Positions 25,297-41,105 of a stretch of 64,000 nucleotides of DNA are shown here, piece after piece. The notes under the pieces are model-generated. The model made no database searches and was not told the DNA's origin. It saw only the letters and a program-made list of their open reading frames with translations. The position numbers were made by a program, and so were the translations under genes. The first letter of the stretch is position 1; the number at the start of each line of letters is the position of its first letter. This DNA is from Escherichia coli (GTDB taxonomy: Bacteria; Pseudomonadota; Gammaproteobacteria; Enterobacterales; Enterobacteriaceae): NCBI RefSeq assembly GCF_001677475.2, contig NZ_CP015229.1; one strand, given 5' to 3'.

Positions 25297-26273
25297 TGGC
25301 GACCTCCGCGTAGCAACAAAAGCAGGAAAAACGGTGCGCCAACAAAAGCGGTCAGAATGCCAAGTGGGATTTCTGTTGTTCCAATGCTGCGTGCCAGCGT
25401 ATCGGTAAGCAGGAGCAGAATAGCGCCAGTACACATTGCCATAGGCAACAGCTGCTGATGGTTATGACCGGTCAACAAGCGGGCAATGTGCGGAACGACC
25501 AGACCGATCCAACCAATTATGCCCGCTATTGCTACCGTGCTGGCGGTGATTAGTGTGGCGCAGACAATCAATCCAAAGCGCAGACGCGTCACGTTCAGTC
25601 CCAGAGAACGGGCTTCGTCGTCGGAAAGCGTGAGTAAATTCATGCGCCAGCGGAGAAAAAACAGGGGCAAGGAGCCTATGAGAATGATCGGTGCAGCATA
25701 GCAGAGATCGCGTAAGGTCACGGTGGACAGTCCCCCCAGCAACCAGAAGGTAATTGACGGTAACTGGGTGTAAGGATCGGCCAGCGTTTTAATTAGCGAT
25801 ATCCCCGCTCCGCACAACGTTCCTAACGCAATGCCTACCAGCACCAGGGTTAAGATCGGATCGTGGCGGGTCACCCGACGCGTAATCAACCAGACGCCCG
25901 CGACCACCATCAGCCCGCCGCAAAATGCGTACAGCTGGATGTAAACAATGGATAATCCCCACAGGATTGCCGCGCAGGCACCAAGTCCGGCACCGGCGGA
26001 GACGCCTAAAATATCCGGTGAAACTAAGGGATTACGCAACATTCCCTGATAGGTGGTTCCGGCTCCTGCCAGCGCCGCGCCCAGTAACAGCGCAGCAAGA
26101 ATACGCGGCACGCGGATTTGCCAGAAGACAATTTGTTCCTGCACAGACACATTTTCTTGACGAAGAATTAGCGCCAGCAGTTGCTGCATATCGAGATGAT
26201 AAGCCCCACTTACGGCGGCAAAAGTGATACTGATAGCTGCCAGCAACAAAATACATCCGTTTACGATTCTCAT
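25293..26273 (-). CDS. FecCD-family ABC transporter permease
   Basis: 326 aa polytopic membrane protein; 1 nt overlap with the binding-protein gene. Confidence 0.8.
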   Translation of the reverse strand: MRIVNGCILLLAAISITFAAVSGAYHLDMQQLLALILRQENVSVQEQIVFWQIRVPRILAALLLGAALAGAGTTYQGMLRNPLVSPDILGVSAGAGLGACAAILWGLSIVYIQLYAFCGGLMVVAGVWLITRRVTRHDPILTLVLVGIALGTLCGAGISLIKTLADPYTQLPSITFWLLGGLSTVTLRDLCYAAPIILIGSLPLFFLRWRMNLLTLSDDEARSLGLNVTRLRFGLIVCATLITASTVAIAGIIGWIGLVVPHIARLLTGHNHQQLLPMAMCTGAILLLLTDTLARSIGTTEIPLGILTAFVGAPFFLLLLLRGGRQ

Positions 26274-27316
26274 TAGCTCGCCACCAATTTTTGATAGTCG
26301 GCATCACTGAGTGAACAATGCCAGAACAGTTGGGCGTAATGCTGCATGTCATTTTTAAACTGGCGATTGATGGCGGGCTCCAGCCAGGCGTGAAGTCTAC
26401 GTAATCCCAGAAGACGGTTGATTCCCGGCGGGGCATCCAGCCAGCCAAAGGGCAAGCCACTTAAAAATAAGATGCGTTGTTCCGCAACGGCTTTCACGCC
26501 CTGCCAGAGAGGATCACGACGAATAAAATCTGCAGTAACGGCCTCCTGAACCAGAATAATATCCGGCTGCCAGCGCAGGAGATTTTCCATGGAAACCTGT
26601 GTCAGGCCGTGGCGATCGGCTATTTGCGCGACGTTGTGCAAACCTAATAATTCCGCCGCCTCGGTATGCAACGAACCCTGTAAGCCCGTTTCCAGCCCTC
26701 GGGGACCGCGCGCAGCATAAAAGCGCAGGTTAGCGGCGGGTGAGGTGGCGAATGCCTGAGCTTCACCAACGAAGTGGCTGGCGAGATTGGCTTGTTCTGC
26801 GGCGCGGTGCTCTTCGCCTAACGTTTTGCCAAGCGTTGTTAACTGTTCTGCTGATTGCGCCAGTTTTCCGTTAAGCAATAACCAGGGGATTTGTGTCTGT
26901 TCGCTAACCTGCCGTGCCTGGGAGATCCAGGTTTCATCCGTATTGCCGCAATCAACGACCAAATCGGGATGTAACGCCATAAGCCCTTCCAGCGAGAGTG
27001 TGCTGGCGCGCCCGGCGAGTCGTCCCAGCCTGGGTAACTGGCGAATGTGCTCTGGCAATGGAATTAATGCCTGACGGGCAAAATCAAAAGAGGAAAAACC
27101 GACCATTTTTTCTGGCGCGACAGCCAGCAATAGCAAATCGGCGGGCGCGCCTGCGCTGACGATGCGTGTAATGTTTTGGGCTTCGGGAAGAGATTGCGAA
27201 GCAAAACGATTAACTGTTTGTGAAAAGGACGGTAGAGACTGCAGGAGCAGGGTAGATGCTAGTGCCTGCGCAAACGTCCGTCTGGTTATGGGCATGGTGA
27301 ACATCCTGAAAAGCAA
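26273..27316 (-). CDS. Periplasmic substrate-binding protein (siderophore/cobalamin type)
   Basis: 347 aa with N-terminal signal sequence (start may be the internal MPITRRTFAQ); first gene of the minus-strand operon. Confidence 0.7.
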   Translation of the reverse strand: MLFRMFTMPITRRTFAQALASTLLLQSLPSFSQTVNRFASQSLPEAQNITRIVSAGAPADLLLLAVAPEKMVGFSSFDFARQALIPLPEHIRQLPRLGRLAGRASTLSLEGLMALHPDLVVDCGNTDETWISQARQVSEQTQIPWLLLNGKLAQSAEQLTTLGKTLGEEHRAAEQANLASHFVGEAQAFATSPAANLRFYAARGPRGLETGLQGSLHTEAAELLGLHNVAQIADRHGLTQVSMENLLRWQPDIILVQEAVTADFIRRDPLWQGVKAVAEQRILFLSGLPFGWLDAPPGINRLLGLRRLHAWLEPAINRQFKNDMQHYAQLFWHCSLSDADYQKLVAS

Positions 27317-27644
27317 AATCGATATATACTTGCATATATAGCGATAAAAATCATGTTCAATATCAAAGTTTAGCTATTGAAAACATGAAGATGTGACGAC
27401 TTCCGCAAGCCTGTTGACTCTCTCTATCATTAAAAATGTATTTATCAGGTGGCTAATATTATTTAAATCATTTAAGGCTAAATTATTTAAATATGAATGA
27501 CATTATTGTTTTTTTATCGTCCGCGGTTATGCGATGTTGAAGTTACTTGTTTTATAATGAGCGATTTTTGATATCTCACCGAGAAGATTATCAGCATTCT
27601 CTCGTTTCAGTGTCGTGAATATACTGTTACCGGAGGTAAAAAGA

Positions 27645-28214
27645 ATGCTGGGGGTTATACAAAACCTATGTTGTTGTCGTCCGGACTCACCGCTTGCTGA
27701 TAGTAAGCAGCGTAACCAGAAGTTACCGCAACAAGACTTTGAGGATTTTAAGAACGACGTTATTAACGTCATTAACAACAATGAAAACATTTATTTTCTT
27801 CGAGAGGATAATTTACTGAATGCGTTTATTCGAACGTGCAAAAAAACAGATGATAACAGTTACAGAAATATGATATTTACGCTTTATTTTGATAACGACA
27901 TCTATGGAAACAGGATTATCAAAGCATCGCTGAACGGTGGAGAGTTGCAGTCATTAAGCACAGGGTGTAGCAATGATAACATTCTCCATTTTATTAATGC
28001 ATTTCTCATTCGGGTAAAATTTCCTCTACCTGGACGCATAAAACCGGAACTCTCGCCAAAAGCCGGGCACTCCGAAGGAATTGACGCGTTGCGCTGCTCT
28101 GTAACGGCGTTAACGCAAGCCATTTATTTCGCCAGCGACAATCCGCAGAGAACCAAACGCATCAGGAAACGACTGAGCACAATAAATACTGTATTGATCA
28201 ACATATTATACTGA
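27645..28214 (+). CDS. Hypothetical protein, AT-rich
   Basis: ATG preceded by GGAGG (MLGVIQNLCCCRPDS...); the track ORF begins at an upstream GTG. Asn/Ile-rich, low GC by eye. Confidence 0.45.
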   Translation: MLGVIQNLCCCRPDSPLADSKQRNQKLPQQDFEDFKNDVINVINNNENIYFLREDNLLNAFIRTCKKTDDNSYRNMIFTLYFDNDIYGNRIIKASLNGGELQSLSTGCSNDNILHFINAFLIRVKFPLPGRIKPELSPKAGHSEGIDALRCSVTALTQAIYFASDNPQRTKRIRKRLSTINTVLINILY

Positions 28215-28276
28215 CACCTCCAGCACGCAGTGAGAACACACTGTATCATCAGCGAATCTTACCACTGCGGATCTGG

Positions 28277-28801
28277 TTGAACGACTTTCTGAGCGAAATA
28301 AGTCGGTTCCCGGCAACAACAACAGAATCCTTTTTTAATTATTGTTTCATTGTTTTTGGTGTTGTTCAGAAAATAAATATTTTAGATAGTAGCCAGTCAG
28401 AGGTTAAAAAGGGGGCTAATAGTGAGACGGCTTTGGCTGCGCTTATTGAACATTTAGAATTGCTCAATCCTTCTGACAGATTAAGCCCAAATACCCGTTT
28501 GGCAATGCTTCAGTTACGCGAAGAGGAATGGTCTGAATTCTTTTATTGGTTGCTAAATTCTCTGGAGTGCCTGGATTATGTGATCATTAATTTAACTCCA
28601 GAAAGCAAAAAAACGTTGATGAGCGAACACCGTAACAATATTCAGGTAGCAATTGATGCTTTATATAGCCAACGTCGGCGTAAATCGCCGGGTGATGAAA
28701 GTGAAACACTTACCCGTAGAAATGACGCTATCTTCGGCAACCACATATGGCAAACATTTGCGCAATACTTCCCGCCAGGACTTGAAAAACCGTCTGTGTA
28801 G
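28277..28801 (+). CDS. Hypothetical protein, possibly a YcgY-related remnant or the 3' part of a split gene
   Basis: 174 aa ORF from a TTG start, different frame from the preceding ORF; occupies the K-12 ycgY position. Confidence 0.35.
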   Translation: MNDFLSEISRFPATTTESFFNYCFIVFGVVQKINILDSSQSEVKKGANSETALAALIEHLELLNPSDRLSPNTRLAMLQLREEEWSEFFYWLLNSLECLDYVIINLTPESKKTLMSEHRNNIQVAIDALYSQRRRKSPGDESETLTRRNDAIFGNHIWQTFAQYFPPGLEKPSV

Positions 28802-28879
28802 AAAAAACCATAGATATGGTGTTATCTGCCGACAACGCCATCCGGAGAAGCCGAATGACGTTGTCGGAGTAAGCGCTGG

Positions 28880-30577
28880 TTAAGGTGTGGGTTGTGCCTC
28901 TTTGGTTGAGGGTTGCGTCGTTGCTGACTTAACGGTCGGACGCGTCGCCGGAACATTGTCGCACGGTTGCTCTTTCGGGCAGATCAAATCCAGCATTTTC
29001 AGCGTCACGCCATTGGTCCAGCCAAAGCCATCCTGTAATGGATATTCGCCACCGCCGCCCCCCGTTCCGGTGGTGCTGACATCATATTTTTCCACCAGCT
29101 TTTTCTCCCGGTCATAGGTGTGCTGAACATTGGTCAGGAAGTGCCAGCTAATGTCCATCGCCACCTCTTTTTGCCCGTAGTTTTGTAATCCTTCTGTCGC
29201 GACCCACTGTAACGGTGCCCAGCCATTTGGCGCATCCCATTGTTGCCCACTTTTCACCGACGTGGTGTTCAGGCCGCCGGGTTGCAGCAGATGAGTTTTC
29301 GTCGCCGTCGCCATTTTGCTGGCGCGATCTTTCGCTGCCGCATTGACGTACAGCGGGAACAGGGCGGCAGCGGTTAACTGATTGCGCACTTTATGACTTT
29401 TCAGGTCGTAATCGGCATACCAGCCTTGTTGATCGTTCCACAGGTATTTTTCGATCCCTTTTTGACGGGCATTTGCCAGCGTTTCGTACTGGTTTGCCAT
29501 CGCGTTATCTCCGGCAGCCTTGCTGGCGCGGGCGAGGATTTTTTCCATTTTAAACATCAGGCTGTTCAGATCGACCGGTACGATGCTGGTGGTGCGTAAG
29601 GTATTTAACTGCTGCGGGTTGTCCATCCAGCGCGAGCTGAAATCCCAGCCAGACGCAGCGGCAGAGCGCAGGTCGCGGTAAATTTCAGTGGCAGGTCGAT
29701 TCGGATTGCTTTTGGCGGTGGCAATATCTTCCACCCATGACTCTGGTCGTGGCGTATCGCGATCGTCCCAGTAGCGGTTGAGAAGGGTACCATCCTGAAG
29801 TTTTACAACGCGTTTTTCCTGTTGTCCGGTTTGCAGGTTTTCAACACCGTCCATCCAGTAAGCATATTCTTTTTGCATTTGCGGCAGGTATTGCTTCAAC
29901 GCGGCATCGCCTTCATGCTGCGCCAGTAACTCTACCATCAGGGCAAAGAAGGGCGGTTGCGAGCGGCTTAAATAGTAACTGCGGTTGCCGTTGGGAATAT
30001 GACCGTAAGTGTCTATTTCATGAGCAAAATTGGCCACCATATCCGCGACTTTATCCCAGTGACCGCTTTCGGCAAGTCCTAACATGGTGAAGTAACTGTC
30101 CCAGTAATATACCTCGCGAAAACGTCCGCCTGGCACGACATAAGGTTCCGGCAGCGGTAACAGAGAATCCCATTTTTCGGTGTTTTCGGTAGAACGTGTT
30201 AATACCGGCCAAAGTCCGTCAATATGTTCGCGCAGTGACTGCCCTTCTGGCGGAACATATTTCTCGCCCTCTTTCGGCAGGGTGAAATTAACGTTAACGA
30301 AATGGCGTAGATCAAATCCGCTCTGGTTTTGCTGCATCCGATAATCAGCAAGGATCATCAGCGGATCGCTGTTCGGCACGGCATCGGCAAAGGTTTTTTG
30401 GTCCGGAAAAAGTTTGGCGTTTTGCACATCATTAAACAGCGGCCCTAATAAAATATCAGGCGGCTGTGGCGTTACCGGTGTTTCTTCTGCCTGCACCGAT
30501 AGCGCAGCGAAACACAAAAAGATGCAGGCTGGAATTAACGCCATTTTTAGCGGGCGAGAAGCTGCGGGGGATTTCAT
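28880..30577 (-). CDS. treA: Periplasmic trehalase
   Basis: 565 aa from [21 protein letters not shown]... Confidence 0.95.
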
Positions 30578-36284: not shown

Positions 36285-39170
36285 TTAAAAGCTGAAGCGA
36301 TATCCTCCGTTGACTTGCTTCTGATCAAAGAGGTTACCCTGCGTGTAATCCGCTTCGAGGTAGAATGTGTGCTGTTTGTAATACTGTGCACTGACTCCCA
36401 CGCCGTTATTCCAGCCATTACCTTTGAAACTGTACTTCTCCCGGGAGTTGTTCAACAGATATTCTGTATCCCCTGAAAACTCGCGGATAGCGCCAGTCTT
36501 CACATAGACATTCAGCTGGCTGTTGCCTGCGGTGATGTCATATCCCAGTATCATGCTGGCACGCCCCAGCAGCGATTTGTAGTGATTCAAATGTATATTG
36601 AGACCATTACTCGCCTTCAAAGCCATCTCATTCTGGTGGCTGTATGTGAGCTGGGTTTGCGGCTCTATATAGAATCCATAACCAGTAGGGGTCAGGTTGA
36701 ACCTCTGACCGGCTTCCAGGGAGATGCTCAATCCATTAGCAGTGCCGTTGGCGTTAACGCCGTTGTTCTGACTGTCCAGTACGTGGAAACTATTTTTCTG
36801 GCGCGATGCTTTTACAACGAGATCGCTGTAAAAACCGTTTTGTGCCATGTAACTGGCGTACATTCCCATGTAGTCTGAACGTGCGGTACCGTCGCCTCCG
36901 CTATAGTCCGGCGATGCATGTGTTGAGCCAATATACAGACCGACATACAACGGCATTACATCAGAGAGACGTTTATCCCCACCAAACTGGATACCGCTGT
37001 AACCCATGTCAAAGCCGCTCAGTTTGCCACTGGCGAAGGAGTCCAGACTTCCCCCATAACTGCGCAGCCAGATATTTCCGTCTTTACTCTGATTTCGCAG
37101 GTCACCCATCCGTTGCATCAGCGTACGGTTTTCAACATAGTTCAATAAGTAACCGACATTGAGATAATTGCCGCCAGCATCTGCGGTCGTGGTGGGTTTA
37201 GGTGTGGGAGTGGGGTTAGGCGTAGGATCGGGTTCAGGTGTAGGATCGGGGTTGACTATGGGAGGCTGAGCGGGAGCCGGTGTTGGTTCAGGATTAGGAG
37301 TCGGTTCCGGAACTGTCCCGGAAGCGTAAAGCTCCCAGTTAGTGCCATTTTTACGCACATCGTACAGATATCCCCCCAACTCAACCTGAGAAGACGCGCT
37401 GAACGAGGCCGCACCGTCAGTGGTTTTTACCACTGTCAGAACTTCATTTCCCGTAGTGGCCTCGCTGCCCTGGTTGCGGATGGCCAATACGTGATTACCA
37501 GCACTACTCCCGCTGATATTCAATAAATCCCCTTTATTATTAACGCCATTACCCTCGCCAACAACATCAGCACGCATAATAAAGGTACTGTTACCGCTCA
37601 GGTTCTCTACGTTTAATGTGGTAAATGTGCCGGCAGTTGACCCGTGGCTGGCAAAATCGACAGTTGAATGGCTCAGCGCCAGCGTGTCGAGATTAGAATT
37701 ACTTGTTACGTTCCAGACGCTGTTATTCATTGCAACGTCCAGTTTCCCGCCATTGACATTATCGCTGAGGGAGGAACCTGTCCAAACCGACCCAGGGTGC
37801 ATATCCAGATTGATTAGCCCACCTTTGGAGAGAACGCTACCGTTGATAAGCATACGACCCGAGGCGTTGATGCGGCTGGCGGCATAACCATCGTCATGTT
37901 GCGTTGCGATGGCCATCTGGTCGGGTGTACTCATATCAATGACCAGATCGCTCGTGAGGTCGATCTGGCTGTTGGTCATGGCATAAATCCCCCTAGCTCC
38001 TGCCGCGCCGGTGATAGCCAAACTGTCTCCGGTTATTCTACCGCCGCTGAGCGCCCACAAACCCAGCGCCAGACTGCCATTACGATCAACCGTAATATCG
38101 GTATTTTGCATGTTGACAACAGCCGTTGCCGTCTGGGCTGAGGCACCATAAGAACCGCTGGAAAAGATGCTGTTTCGTTGCGCTGCCGTGCCAGAAAAAT
38201 TGATTGTCGCGTCTGAACCACTGGTTACGAGGCCACCGCCCTGCGCGGAAGAAATATGGCTATCAGCACCGATAGTGGTTGTACCACCACGAACTTCGAC
38301 GCCATTTGCCGCGGCTCCAGTTACATCAACAGTGAGTGCATTCGCGCTCACCTGGCCAAAGCTCCAGAGGCCGTGTGCATTATCGCCATTGGTTGTAATG
38401 GAACTGTTTGTTCCGAGATCGACAACAGAGTTTTTCTGTACGTTTATCCCCATGGCGCTGTAGCCCTGAACATCGATTGTCAGGTCTGTCGCCGTAAAAC
38501 GCGCAGCACCATTGGCGTTATTGCCGTTGAGACCACCGATATAAACACCTGTACTTCCATCGGTCTTGATTTTACTTCCGCTTCCAAGATCGACACTGGT
38601 GCCATAGTCATTGATTGTTAGGCCTATACCGTTCGAGTTTTCAATGGTGAATTGAGTGGCTGTTAGTGTTGAGCTATGTCCAATAATGATGCCGTCATCG
38701 TTACTCTTAATGGTGCTGCCTGTGCCTAAGTCAGCATGGGTATAGTCACCAATTAAATTAATGCCGATGGCAGAGGTTTGACCAACAACATCTACTGTAA
38801 GTCGGTTAGCTGTCAGGGAGCTGTTCTTGCCCTGAATAATGATTCCCTTTGCATATCCAGAGGCGTCGTTGACATTGACGGTGACATCATTACCCAGGTT
38901 GATATTGCCAGGCGTGTTTCCTGCTGGGGTCATTACACCATAGAGGTTTCCTGATGGATCGGCGGTATCTCCTGTAATTCTGTCACCATCACTAATAGTA
39001 ATATTGGTGCCATTTTGACTTCCTAAATCAGCAGCTATCAGCAGGGGGGAAAAGATAATTGCATTCAAACCAATAGCGCCATATTTTATCAGTTGAATGG
39101 AGGGCGAACGGATTTTTAATTCAGCGAGACGATCGGCTTTGGTATTCCCATTGTGTTGTTTGATGCCCAT
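36285..39170 (-). CDS. ycgV: Autotransporter adhesin YcgV (AIDA-like)
   Basis: 961 aa; repetitive Gly/Thr/Ser-rich passenger, Pro/Thr-rich linker, C-terminal beta-barrel ending ...YRFSF. Confidence 0.85.
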   Translation of the reverse strand: MGIKQHNGNTKADRLAELKIRSPSIQLIKYGAIGLNAIIFSPLLIAADLGSQNGTNITISDGDRITGDTADPSGNLYGVMTPAGNTPGNINLGNDVTVNVNDASGYAKGIIIQGKNSSLTANRLTVDVVGQTSAIGINLIGDYTHADLGTGSTIKSNDDGIIIGHSSTLTATQFTIENSNGIGLTINDYGTSVDLGSGSKIKTDGSTGVYIGGLNGNNANGAARFTATDLTIDVQGYSAMGINVQKNSVVDLGTNSSITTNGDNAHGLWSFGQVSANALTVDVTGAAANGVEVRGGTTTIGADSHISSAQGGGLVTSGSDATINFSGTAAQRNSIFSSGSYGASAQTATAVVNMQNTDITVDRNGSLALGLWALSGGRITGDSLAITGAAGARGIYAMTNSQIDLTSDLVIDMSTPDQMAIATQHDDGYAASRINASGRMLINGSVLSKGGLINLDMHPGSVWTGSSLSDNVNGGKLDVAMNNSVWNVTSNSNLDTLALSHSTVDFASHGSTAGTFTTLNVENLSGNSTFIMRADVVGEGNGVNNKGDLLNISGSSAGNHVLAIRNQGSEATTGNEVLTVVKTTDGAASFSASSQVELGGYLYDVRKNGTNWELYASGTVPEPTPNPEPTPAPAQPPIVNPDPTPEPDPTPNPTPTPKPTTTADAGGNYLNVGYLLNYVENRTLMQRMGDLRNQSKDGNIWLRSYGGSLDSFASGKLSGFDMGYSGIQFGGDKRLSDVMPLYVGLYIGSTHASPDYSGGDGTARSDYMGMYASYMAQNGFYSDLVVKASRQKNSFHVLDSQNNGVNANGTANGLSISLEAGQRFNLTPTGYGFYIEPQTQLTYSHQNEMALKASNGLNIHLNHYKSLLGRASMILGYDITAGNSQLNVYVKTGAIREFSGDTEYLLNNSREKYSFKGNGWNNGVGVSAQYYKQHTFYLEADYTQGNLFDQKQVNGGYRFSF

Positions 39171-40013
39171 ACCACTCCTATATAGTACCCAGGCTATGGG
39201 TCTATGGATTTTGTCATTTTGTTTAAGTCAATGAATAATATCCTCTTATCATCATGATATTTGTATGGTGCAATCATGATGAGCTGCTCTGAGAATAATT
39301 CTCTATTACCGGGCAAAATCAGGAACACAGGAATTAATATATATTTAACATCCCCCTTACAAAGGTGAGCTTAGATCGAGTTATTCCCTAAGTTGTCGTT
39401 ACTTATTCCAATTCGTTACAATGAATATGACAAAAACATTACAACAAACAGCGGTTAAATAATTTGGTGAATATTTTTGGTAATAATCCTAATTGGTTAT
39501 GGGTTTTTCGCTTGATGTATCTGCATAACAAAAACAATATGAGCCATTTTTGCATTACTAATAAGAAAAAGCAAAAAACATCGATATTCATTTTTGATCA
39601 ATGGATTTTCTGGCATATCGTTATTATCGTGATACTGGTTATCATTTTCATCTTGCCAGCATCGCACGTAATCACGTTATTCGGGGATTTTATCTGCGGG
39701 ATATTACCCTTCAGGTAAGTCCTTTTCTCGCCAGCATATTGGAGCGTGATCAATATTGATCAGCTGTGAAGGGGGCTGATGTGTAGTGGAACAAAAAATT
39801 ACGTTATATCACTGCTAATGAGATATCCGTCATCTGAACATTTATGTCTTTAATTATTCTCGTGGTTCACTGTAGGCAATAAGCACAAAAGTGTAGGATG
39901 TTATAAGAATGGTTAGGACTCGGTGAAATGAAAAATCCACGCAATTGCGTGGATTTTATATACTTTTGCGCTCTTCATGAGATTTAGCGAAACCTCATGA
40001 GACAACAAATTAA

Positions 40014-41105
40014 TTAGACGTTGAACAGGAAGTTCATTACATCGCCATCTTTAACGATGTAATCTTTGCCTTCTGCACGCATTTTGCCTGCTTCTTTCGC
40101 GCCTTGTTCACCTTTGTAAGTGATGAAATCTTCGAACGAAATAGTTTGTGCACGGATAAAGCCTTTTTCAAAATCAGTATGGATTTTGCCAGCGGCCTGC
40201 GGCGCGGTTGCACCAACCGGAATGGTCCATGCACGTACTTCTTTCACCCCAGCGGTGAAGTAAGTTTGCAGGTTCAGCAGCTTATAACCGGCACGGATCA
40301 CACGGTTCAGGCCCGGCTCTTCCAGCCCAAGCTCCTGCATAAACTCGTCACGTTCTTCGTCGTCCAGTTCGGCAATGTCTGCTTCAACAGCAGCACAAAC
40401 CGGAACCACAACAGAACCTTCTTTCGCCGCGATTTCACGCACCTGGTCAAGATACGGGTTGTTTTCAAAACCGTCTTCGTTGACGTTGGCGATGTACATT
40501 GTTGGTTTCAGCGTCAGGAAGCTCAGGTAACGAATAGCCGCTTTCTCTTCAGCGCTTAAATCCAGCGCGCGCAGCATACCTGCGTTTTCCAGCTGCGGCA
40601 GGCATTTTTCCAGTACCGCCAGCTCGGCTTTCGCGTCTTTATCGCCACCTTTGGCTTTCTTCTGTACGCGATGAATCGCACGTTCGCAGGTGTCGAGGTC
40701 CGCCAGCGCCAGTTCGGTATTGATAACTTCAATATCATCCGCCGGGTTAACTTTGCCGGAAACGTGAATGATGTTGTCATTTTCAAAGCAGCGAACAACG
40801 TGACCGATCGCTTCAGTTTCACGGATGTTGGTCAGGAACTGGTTACCCAGACCTTCGCCTTTCGATGCGCCTTTTACCAGACCGGCGATATCGACAAATT
40901 CCATGGTCGTGGGAAGCGTACGCTGCGGTTTTACGATTTCAGCCAGTTGATCCAGGCGAGGGTCAGGCATTGGTACGACGCCTGTGTTCGGCTCAATGGT
41001 GCAGAATGGAAAGTTGGCCGCTTCAATACCGGCTTTGGTCAGCGCGTTGAACAGGGTAGATTTCCCGACGTTGGGCAAACCGACGATACCGCATTTGAAT
41101 CCCAT
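40014..41105 (-). CDS. ychF: Ribosome-binding ATPase YchF
   Basis: 363 aa; G1 motif GLPNVGKST. Confidence 0.95.

Follow-up and report, generated by a model that had tools for sequence, protein, structure and literature searches.

Organization of the locus

The window analysed here, a stretch of 64,000 nucleotides of Escherichia coli DNA, carries two plus-strand open reading frames (ORFs) in different frames between an uptake gene cluster and treA: ORF1 at 27645-28214 (frame 0) and ORF2 at 28277-28801 (frame 2), with a gap of 62 nt between them. The first-pass annotation had described the two as lying about 60 bp apart, AT-rich relative to their flanks, the first preceded by a good ribosome binding site and beginning with a cysteine triplet, the second with a TTG start only, and all of these features were recovered. 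The Shine-Dalgarno sequence GGAGG lies at 27633-27637 (plus strand), 7 nt 5' of the ATG at 27645, and is kept in E. albertii as well as in the loci L003 and L005. The ORF1 product begins MLGVIQNLCCC. ORF2 has TTG as its only start and no Shine-Dalgarno sequence upstream of it. The GC content of 27645-28801 was computed as 0.41, compared with 0.52-0.53 in the flanks (0.53 in the uptake cluster and 0.52 in treA) and a window mean of 0.50, and only 3.6% of same-size segments within the 64 kb are equally AT-rich. In the intergenic region upstream of ORF1 the value falls to 0.31.

In a three-frame translation, the open stretch of the ORF2 frame reaches back to about 28085, and the two frames therefore overlap at the end of ORF1 by approximately 130 nt, which is the expected outcome of a frameshift.

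The lowest-GC kilobase of the window is found elsewhere, at 39001-40000 (0.365). It contains no real-looking ORF and is situated upstream of a 961-aa autotransporter-like ORF (36285-39170), in the gap before a 363-aa GTPase-like ORF (40014-41105).

A single-nucleotide deletion splits one gene

We aligned the DNA of the window to four intact loci, L003 from E. coli, L008 and L009 from S. flexneri and L004 from E. albertii, and found a single difference that breaks the frame: one T is absent at 28110-28111 (plus strand), within codon 156. This codon reads TTT in the intact E. coli and S. flexneri references, CTT in E. albertii and TT in the window. A further difference, of 3 bp at 27676-27678, goes back to a deletion that only L003 has. 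Adding one T to the window restores an ORF of 385 aa. The proposal that the pair is one gene split by a frameshift is thus borne out by this single missing T together with the intact orthologues, which are single ORFs of 384-385 aa; the homologues do not show two independent conserved genes, and a counterpart of ORF1 is found in the relatives.

In the native frame, the 5' portion (27645-28111, plus strand) comprises codons 1-155 (27645-28109) and two bases of codon 156, is colinear with residues 1-155 of the intact orthologues, and takes in the N-terminal Cys motif and the whole α/β N-domain predicted by a low-confidence AlphaFold2 model. From 28112 to 28214 (plus strand) ORF1 continues as a tail of 33 wholly out-of-frame codons that ends at the stop codon TGA (28212-28214), and the residues past ...SVTAL have no counterpart in the intact proteins. 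The 3' part in the native frame (28112-28801, plus strand) contains codons 157-385 and a TAG stop, aligns with residues 157-385 of the intact orthologues, and encodes a Q/E/T-rich linker and a C-domain predicted to be all-helical. The TTG of ORF2 (28277-28279, plus strand) is no genuine start; it corresponds to a Leu codon inside the intact gene, the L in ...LRIWLNDFLSE...

Since what distinguishes the broken allele is a short T run altered in length by 1 nt, one could suppose an artefact of sequencing or assembly and a gene that is actually intact in this genome. The T run is, however, merely 3 nt long, and the identical 189-aa product of ORF1 recurs on 21 contigs that all share the gene neighbourhood and include a 5.5-Mb record; the assembly GCA_033729275.1 is an example of a genome with this allele. 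The same product is deposited at NCBI as an E. coli hypothetical protein, under several protein accessions, and is present in Logan assemblies. The presence of the broken allele on 21 contigs therefore speaks against a sequencing error, which we consider highly improbable. The broken allele is fixed in a lineage represented by many assemblies.

The overlap of about 130 nt between the frames would also accommodate programmed -1 ribosomal frameshifting, by which the full-length protein could be restored. Against this, no X XXY YYZ slippery heptamer is present at or near GCG TTA ACG (28100-28115), the orthologues are unshifted and no Rfam element was found, so that the likelihood of this explanation is next to negligible.

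In this lineage, the gene was broken by the loss of one T from the TTT of codon 156, within the predicted disordered inter-domain linker. Translation from the conserved promoter, GGAGG and ATG would then proceed through 155 native codons and a short out-of-frame tail to the stop at 28212-28214. The downstream 229 native codons (linker and helical C-domain) are most likely untranslated because they have neither a start codon nor a Shine-Dalgarno sequence of their own. Since the promoter, the Shine-Dalgarno sequence and the complete N-domain are intact, a truncated ORF1 protein could be made and could retain some activity.

Orthologues and selective constraint

As query for a search of 5.8 billion proteins, ORF1 was joined to the extended ORF2 frame. 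An E. coli protein of 384 aa (P0001) matched this joined query with 88% identity at 100% coverage, and an E. albertii protein of 385 aa (P0002, WP_241215842.1) with 61% identity; the repaired window protein is 96% identical to P0001 and 63% identical to P0002. Two further single-ORF proteins of 385 aa were obtained by cluster look-up: P0021, an S. flexneri "Uncharacterised protein" present on at least 621 contigs, and P0024 (CTT20176.1) from E. coli. Among P0021, P0024 and P0002, only P0002 was aligned with the repaired window protein. Four other E. albertii proteins of 385 aa besides P0002 are single ORFs too. Intact single-ORF copies are thus seen in E. albertii, in some S. flexneri and in a few E. 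coli.

An exhaustive phmmer search of 1.8 billion representatives yielded no non-YcgY relatives, its matches being pieces of the same gene from Escherichia/Shigella; one additional match, to a repetitive 1,415-aa protein, was judged spurious, as it arises through the repeats of that protein. In a scan of genome contigs, matches were obtained in E. albertii only.

The dN/dS ratio relative to E. albertii, calculated by the Nei-Gojobori method for the genes of the E. coli lineage, lies at 0.14-0.17 for the gene as a whole; four segments taken singly give 0.11-0.22, with 0.11-0.16 for codons 1-125 and 0.12-0.22 for the 3' part (codons 157-385). For comparison, treA gives 0.07 and the substrate-binding gene 0.09. 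These values, low in each segment, establish that the ancestral gene was protein-coding and exclude a non-coding or half-coding reading. Likewise, the existence of orthologues and the dN/dS of about 0.15 mean that ORF1 and ORF2 are not chance products. The dN of full-length ycgY is about 3.6 times that of treA, and the protein is therefore a fast-evolving one. Within E. coli, the comparison of the window with L003 gives a dN/dS of 0.54 from 26 substitutions only, a value that fits a recent relaxation of constraint and noise alike.

The first-pass annotation had also suggested that the gene was acquired horizontally, which is plausible on composition only. Because E. albertii shares the order cluster-gene-treA, any such acquisition predates the split of E. 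coli and E. albertii.

Predicted protein architecture

Searches of Pfam, NCBIfam, PADLOC and PHROGs with both ORFs and with three intact proteins, and a profile search against PDB sequences, gave nothing under E = 0.09. A CT_584-like match (E = 0.12) was taken as chance. The AlphaFold2 model of the full-length protein is unreliable (pLDDT 36.6), and the layout that it proposes, an α/β N-domain at residues ~29-123, an unstructured Q/E/T-rich linker at ~124-196 and a helical C-domain, is of low confidence; the C-domain modelled as seven helices reaches a pLDDT of 56.6. The intact protein would accordingly appear to be soluble and two-domained, with an N-terminal Cys-Cys motif followed by an α/β domain, a Q/E/T-rich linker and a helical bundle. 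The N-terminal cysteines also led us to consider a bacterial lipoprotein, for which a positively charged n-region, a hydrophobic h-region and the lipobox L-[AS]-[GA]-C are expected. This was rejected, as the cysteines at positions 9-11 follow straight after MLGVIQNL, with no charged n-region or adequate h-region.

Elsewhere in the window, a 488-aa ORF on the minus strand (14085-15551), located between dadX and cvrA, gave weak matches to leucine-rich repeats (LRR_4, E = 6e-6) that fall slightly short of the Pfam cutoff. Elsewhere in E. coli its annotation is hypothetical or "leucine-rich repeat domain-containing protein", and its exact sequence is absent from the protein collection searched.

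Promoter, 5' UTR and the convergent hairpin

In the comparison with E. albertii, the best-conserved part of the locus is 27540-27660, which comprises the core promoter, the 5' UTR and the first codons. The conserved core promoter and 5' UTR (27540-27644, plus strand), with a TATAAT at 27553-27558, show 85-89% identity, compared with about 50% in the intergenic stretch 27390-27510 and 55-87% in the coding sequence, whose synonymous sites are saturated. Examined as a structured RNA, the 5' UTR gave no Rfam match, and its folding z-scores of -0.86 and -0.73 are unexceptional. In the window, a perfect pairing that spans the start codon is possible between the UTR stretch CAGCAUUC and GAAUGCUG, while the UTR of E. 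albertii pairs CCUCC with GGAGG instead. Judging from these complementary stretches, a pairing that masks the Shine-Dalgarno sequence or the start codon could act as a translational control hairpin. A scan for promoters and terminators yielded a number of sites not above that in shuffled sequence.

The 78-nt convergent gap between ycgY and treA contains a stable hairpin at 28818-28877, with core arms at 28829-28837 and 28859-28867. Its minimum free energy is -29.1 kcal/mol (z = -4.65), none of 200 shuffled sequences folds equally well, and K-12 has the same core arms and loop. The hairpin was missed by the terminator scan because it has no T-run. It is probably a shared terminator or a REP-like element.

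ycgY of K-12 is a remnant

A relation to K-12 ycgY had been proposed tentatively in the first-pass annotation and is confirmed by alignment: window 28300-28900 matches K-12 DNA at 96%, and K-12 YcgY (146 aa) is 91% identical to the C-terminal 146 residues. In K-12, L003, L005, E. albertii and S. flexneri alike, the gene is the direct upstream neighbour of treA, with the two in convergent orientation, which places the locus in the YcgY family. The segment that survives in K-12 as ycgY corresponds to 28300-28801 (plus strand). The similarity to K-12 starts at window 28300, where 43 bp connect it to the DNA downstream of ymgE (window up to 20892). The annotated GTG start of K-12 ycgY is an internal Val codon, at which the window (28361) reads GTT, and no Shine-Dalgarno sequence precedes it. 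K-12 ycgY is a promoterless, 5'-deleted remnant that consists of the last 146 codons of the 385-codon gene. Our literature search found no paper that describes ycgY as truncated or that describes the full-length gene.

The abundance of YcgY in K-12 has been given as 0.564 ppm (PMC9841429). Overexpression of the K-12 C-terminal fragment is reported to raise the MIC of nalidixic acid more than 12-fold, the only published phenotype (PMC12924614), and YcgY fragments are thus not necessarily inert.

At K-12-type loci the ycgY frame continues without a stop through the deletion junction as far as an ATG downstream of ymgE, and gene callers therefore sometimes predict a chimeric N-terminus. One such K-12-type protein, P0009, begins MPLSAFTSERILDTCFTGEKINIALRYPIK followed by SVPVTTTESFF...

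Loss of the gene in Escherichia and Shigella

The ancestral gene order is ymgE, the TonB receptor-modD-methyltransferase-ABC cluster, full-length ycgY and treA; by synteny, this arrangement is found in E. albertii, in S. flexneri and in the window. Loci of the L003 type have about 160 bp in place of the cluster and an intact gene. In the K-12 type a further stretch of about 1 kb, the 5' part of the gene, is deleted, and of the 5,426 complete E. coli genomes searched, 3,135 have the resulting junction. The cluster-only type, seen in 2,139 of the 5,426, has 267 bp in place of window 27372-28878. ORF1 was found in none of these complete genomes (0/5,426), the nearest of which are 98.4-98.5% identical to the window. 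The disrupted S. flexneri copies that we examined (L006 and L007) carry an IS1 at about nt 355 of the gene, and L007 has a 3' frameshift in addition. Truncated variants of 113, 133 and 344 aa occur in E. albertii.

The uptake cluster itself (20869-27316, minus strand) encodes a TonB-dependent receptor, ModD, a class I SAM methyltransferase, an ABC ATPase, a permease and a substrate-binding protein. Its presence varies, with 2,149 of the 5,426 complete E. coli genomes carrying it. The totals of the K-12 and cluster-only types (3,135 + 2,139 = 97%), which are sums over genomes and not per-genome pairings, suggest that the cluster and the ycgY remnant rarely occur together. In E. albertii the gene for the TonB-dependent receptor appears split (L004 1294-1941 and 1948-3234).

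In the cluster-only E. coli 14EC033 (L002 10373-10638), 267 bp of unrelated sequence stand where ycgY was. The adjoining 3' end of treA in cluster-only E. coli is 86% identical to window 28879-29040. This is far under the ~98% of the flanks, and therefore suggests that the treA allele at the deletion edge is recombined or divergent.

The gene was probably dispensable in most E. coli. Its AT-richness suggests that it is probably H-NS-silenced accessory DNA, subject to loss by several independent routes.

The position of the lesion raises the question of whether the window instead represents a functional split, a gene fission in which the two domains are made as separate working polypeptides. 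The lesion does lie in the predicted disordered linker, leaving the N-domain intact and the C-domain almost intact, and the C-terminal fragment of K-12 has an overexpression phenotype. ORF2, on the other hand, has neither an ATG or GTG start nor a Shine-Dalgarno sequence. Because its TTG is an internal Leu codon, it also misses the 55 native codons 157-211, and with them about half of the first C-domain helix of the model. Moreover, the split is limited to one lineage, and other lineages destroy the gene in different ways. Taken together, we regard fission as very unlikely.

Assessment as a type III secretion substrate

Another reading concerns the ancestral function: full-length YcgY could be a "fossil" substrate of a type III secretion system, or host-directed effector, of an Escherichia ancestor, with the Cys-Cys(-Cys) motif lipidated by S-palmitoylation in the host. 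If true, this would account for the restriction of intact copies to S. flexneri, E. albertii and a few E. coli, and for the stronger conservation of the promoter and 5' UTR relative to the coding sequence. Several properties are in line with it, namely the low GC content (0.41), the lack of a signal peptide or known domain, and an N-terminus that is rich in Ser, Pro, Gln and Asn with a conserved CC at residues 9-10. In addition, both S. flexneri and E. albertii, in which intact copies persist, have type III secretion, and there is a published precedent in icaR, icaT and yccE (PMC9241512, PMC9769918).

The DNA upstream of the gene also contains a MxiE-box-like sequence, TTATTGTTTTTTTATCG, at 27503-27519, of which the T7 core is kept in E. 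albertii. Its agreement with a genuine box is nevertheless incomplete. It has three mismatches, and 0.54 matches with three mismatches or fewer are expected per window by chance. The positions G1, G6, T7-10, T12, A14 and A16 are strictly conserved in MxiE boxes (PMC3299695); TTATTGTTTTTTTATCG agrees at seven of these nine essential positions and carries T instead of G1 and C instead of A16. The exchange G1T cuts activity 2-fold and A16C 6-fold (PMC3299695). The spacing would not fit either, if the only conserved TATAAT (27553-27558) is the -10 element: the end of a MxiE box is expected about 33 bp ahead of the transcription start, roughly 20 bp before the -10 element, but TTATTGTTTTTTTATCG is separated by 33 bp from this TATAAT.

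The main text of the RNA-seq study of the MxiE regulon names yccE, yfdF and yjgL and not ycgY, and most S. flexneri copies are disrupted. The evidence against a type III secretion substrate is stronger than the evidence for it, and we consider this reading unsupported and unlikely.

Discussion

Our analysis indicates that window 27645-28801 is very probably a pseudogene of a gene of approximately 385 codons that is specific to Escherichia/Shigella and is the full-length form of ycgY. The ORF pair as such is an ordinary pseudogene and an ordinary case of gene decay, with a correction of the K-12 annotation as its useful by-product. ycgY is a "y-ome" gene of K-12 but amounts to the 3' 38% (146/385 codons) of a longer gene, and we propose that it be treated as a remnant. 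This status alters how overexpression phenotypes of the fragment are to be read, for instance the reported rise of the nalidixic-acid MIC by more than 12-fold. The interval between ymgE and treA is a compact case of parallel gene loss, with one or the other of two deletions in almost every complete E. coli genome, and the state of the locus could act as a lineage marker.

The comparison with the intact orthologues P0021, P0024 and P0002 shows colinearity over 385 codons and the same gene neighbourhood as in the window; these orthologues are uninterrupted ORFs, whereas the window has a 1-nt deletion. K-12 ycgY, annotated as "protein YcgY" and uncharacterised, shares with the window gene its position beside treA. 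It has lost the promoter, the Shine-Dalgarno sequence and the first ~239 codons, while the window retains the whole gene in frameshifted form.

Among characterized systems, the AT-rich chromosomal genes icaR (yjgL), icaT (yfdF) and yccE of S. flexneri and E. coli belong to the MxiE regulon of Shigella, and two of their products, IcaR and IcaT, are demonstrated substrates of the type III apparatus (PMC9241512, PMC9769918). Like these three, full-length ycgY is an AT-rich y-gene with a patchy distribution and frequent disruption in E. coli and Shigella, and, like yccE and yfdF, it is probably silenced by H-NS. Unlike icaR, icaT and yccE, to which it has no sequence similarity, ycgY is preceded by a MxiE-like motif that departs from the functional box at two essential positions and apparently in its spacing.
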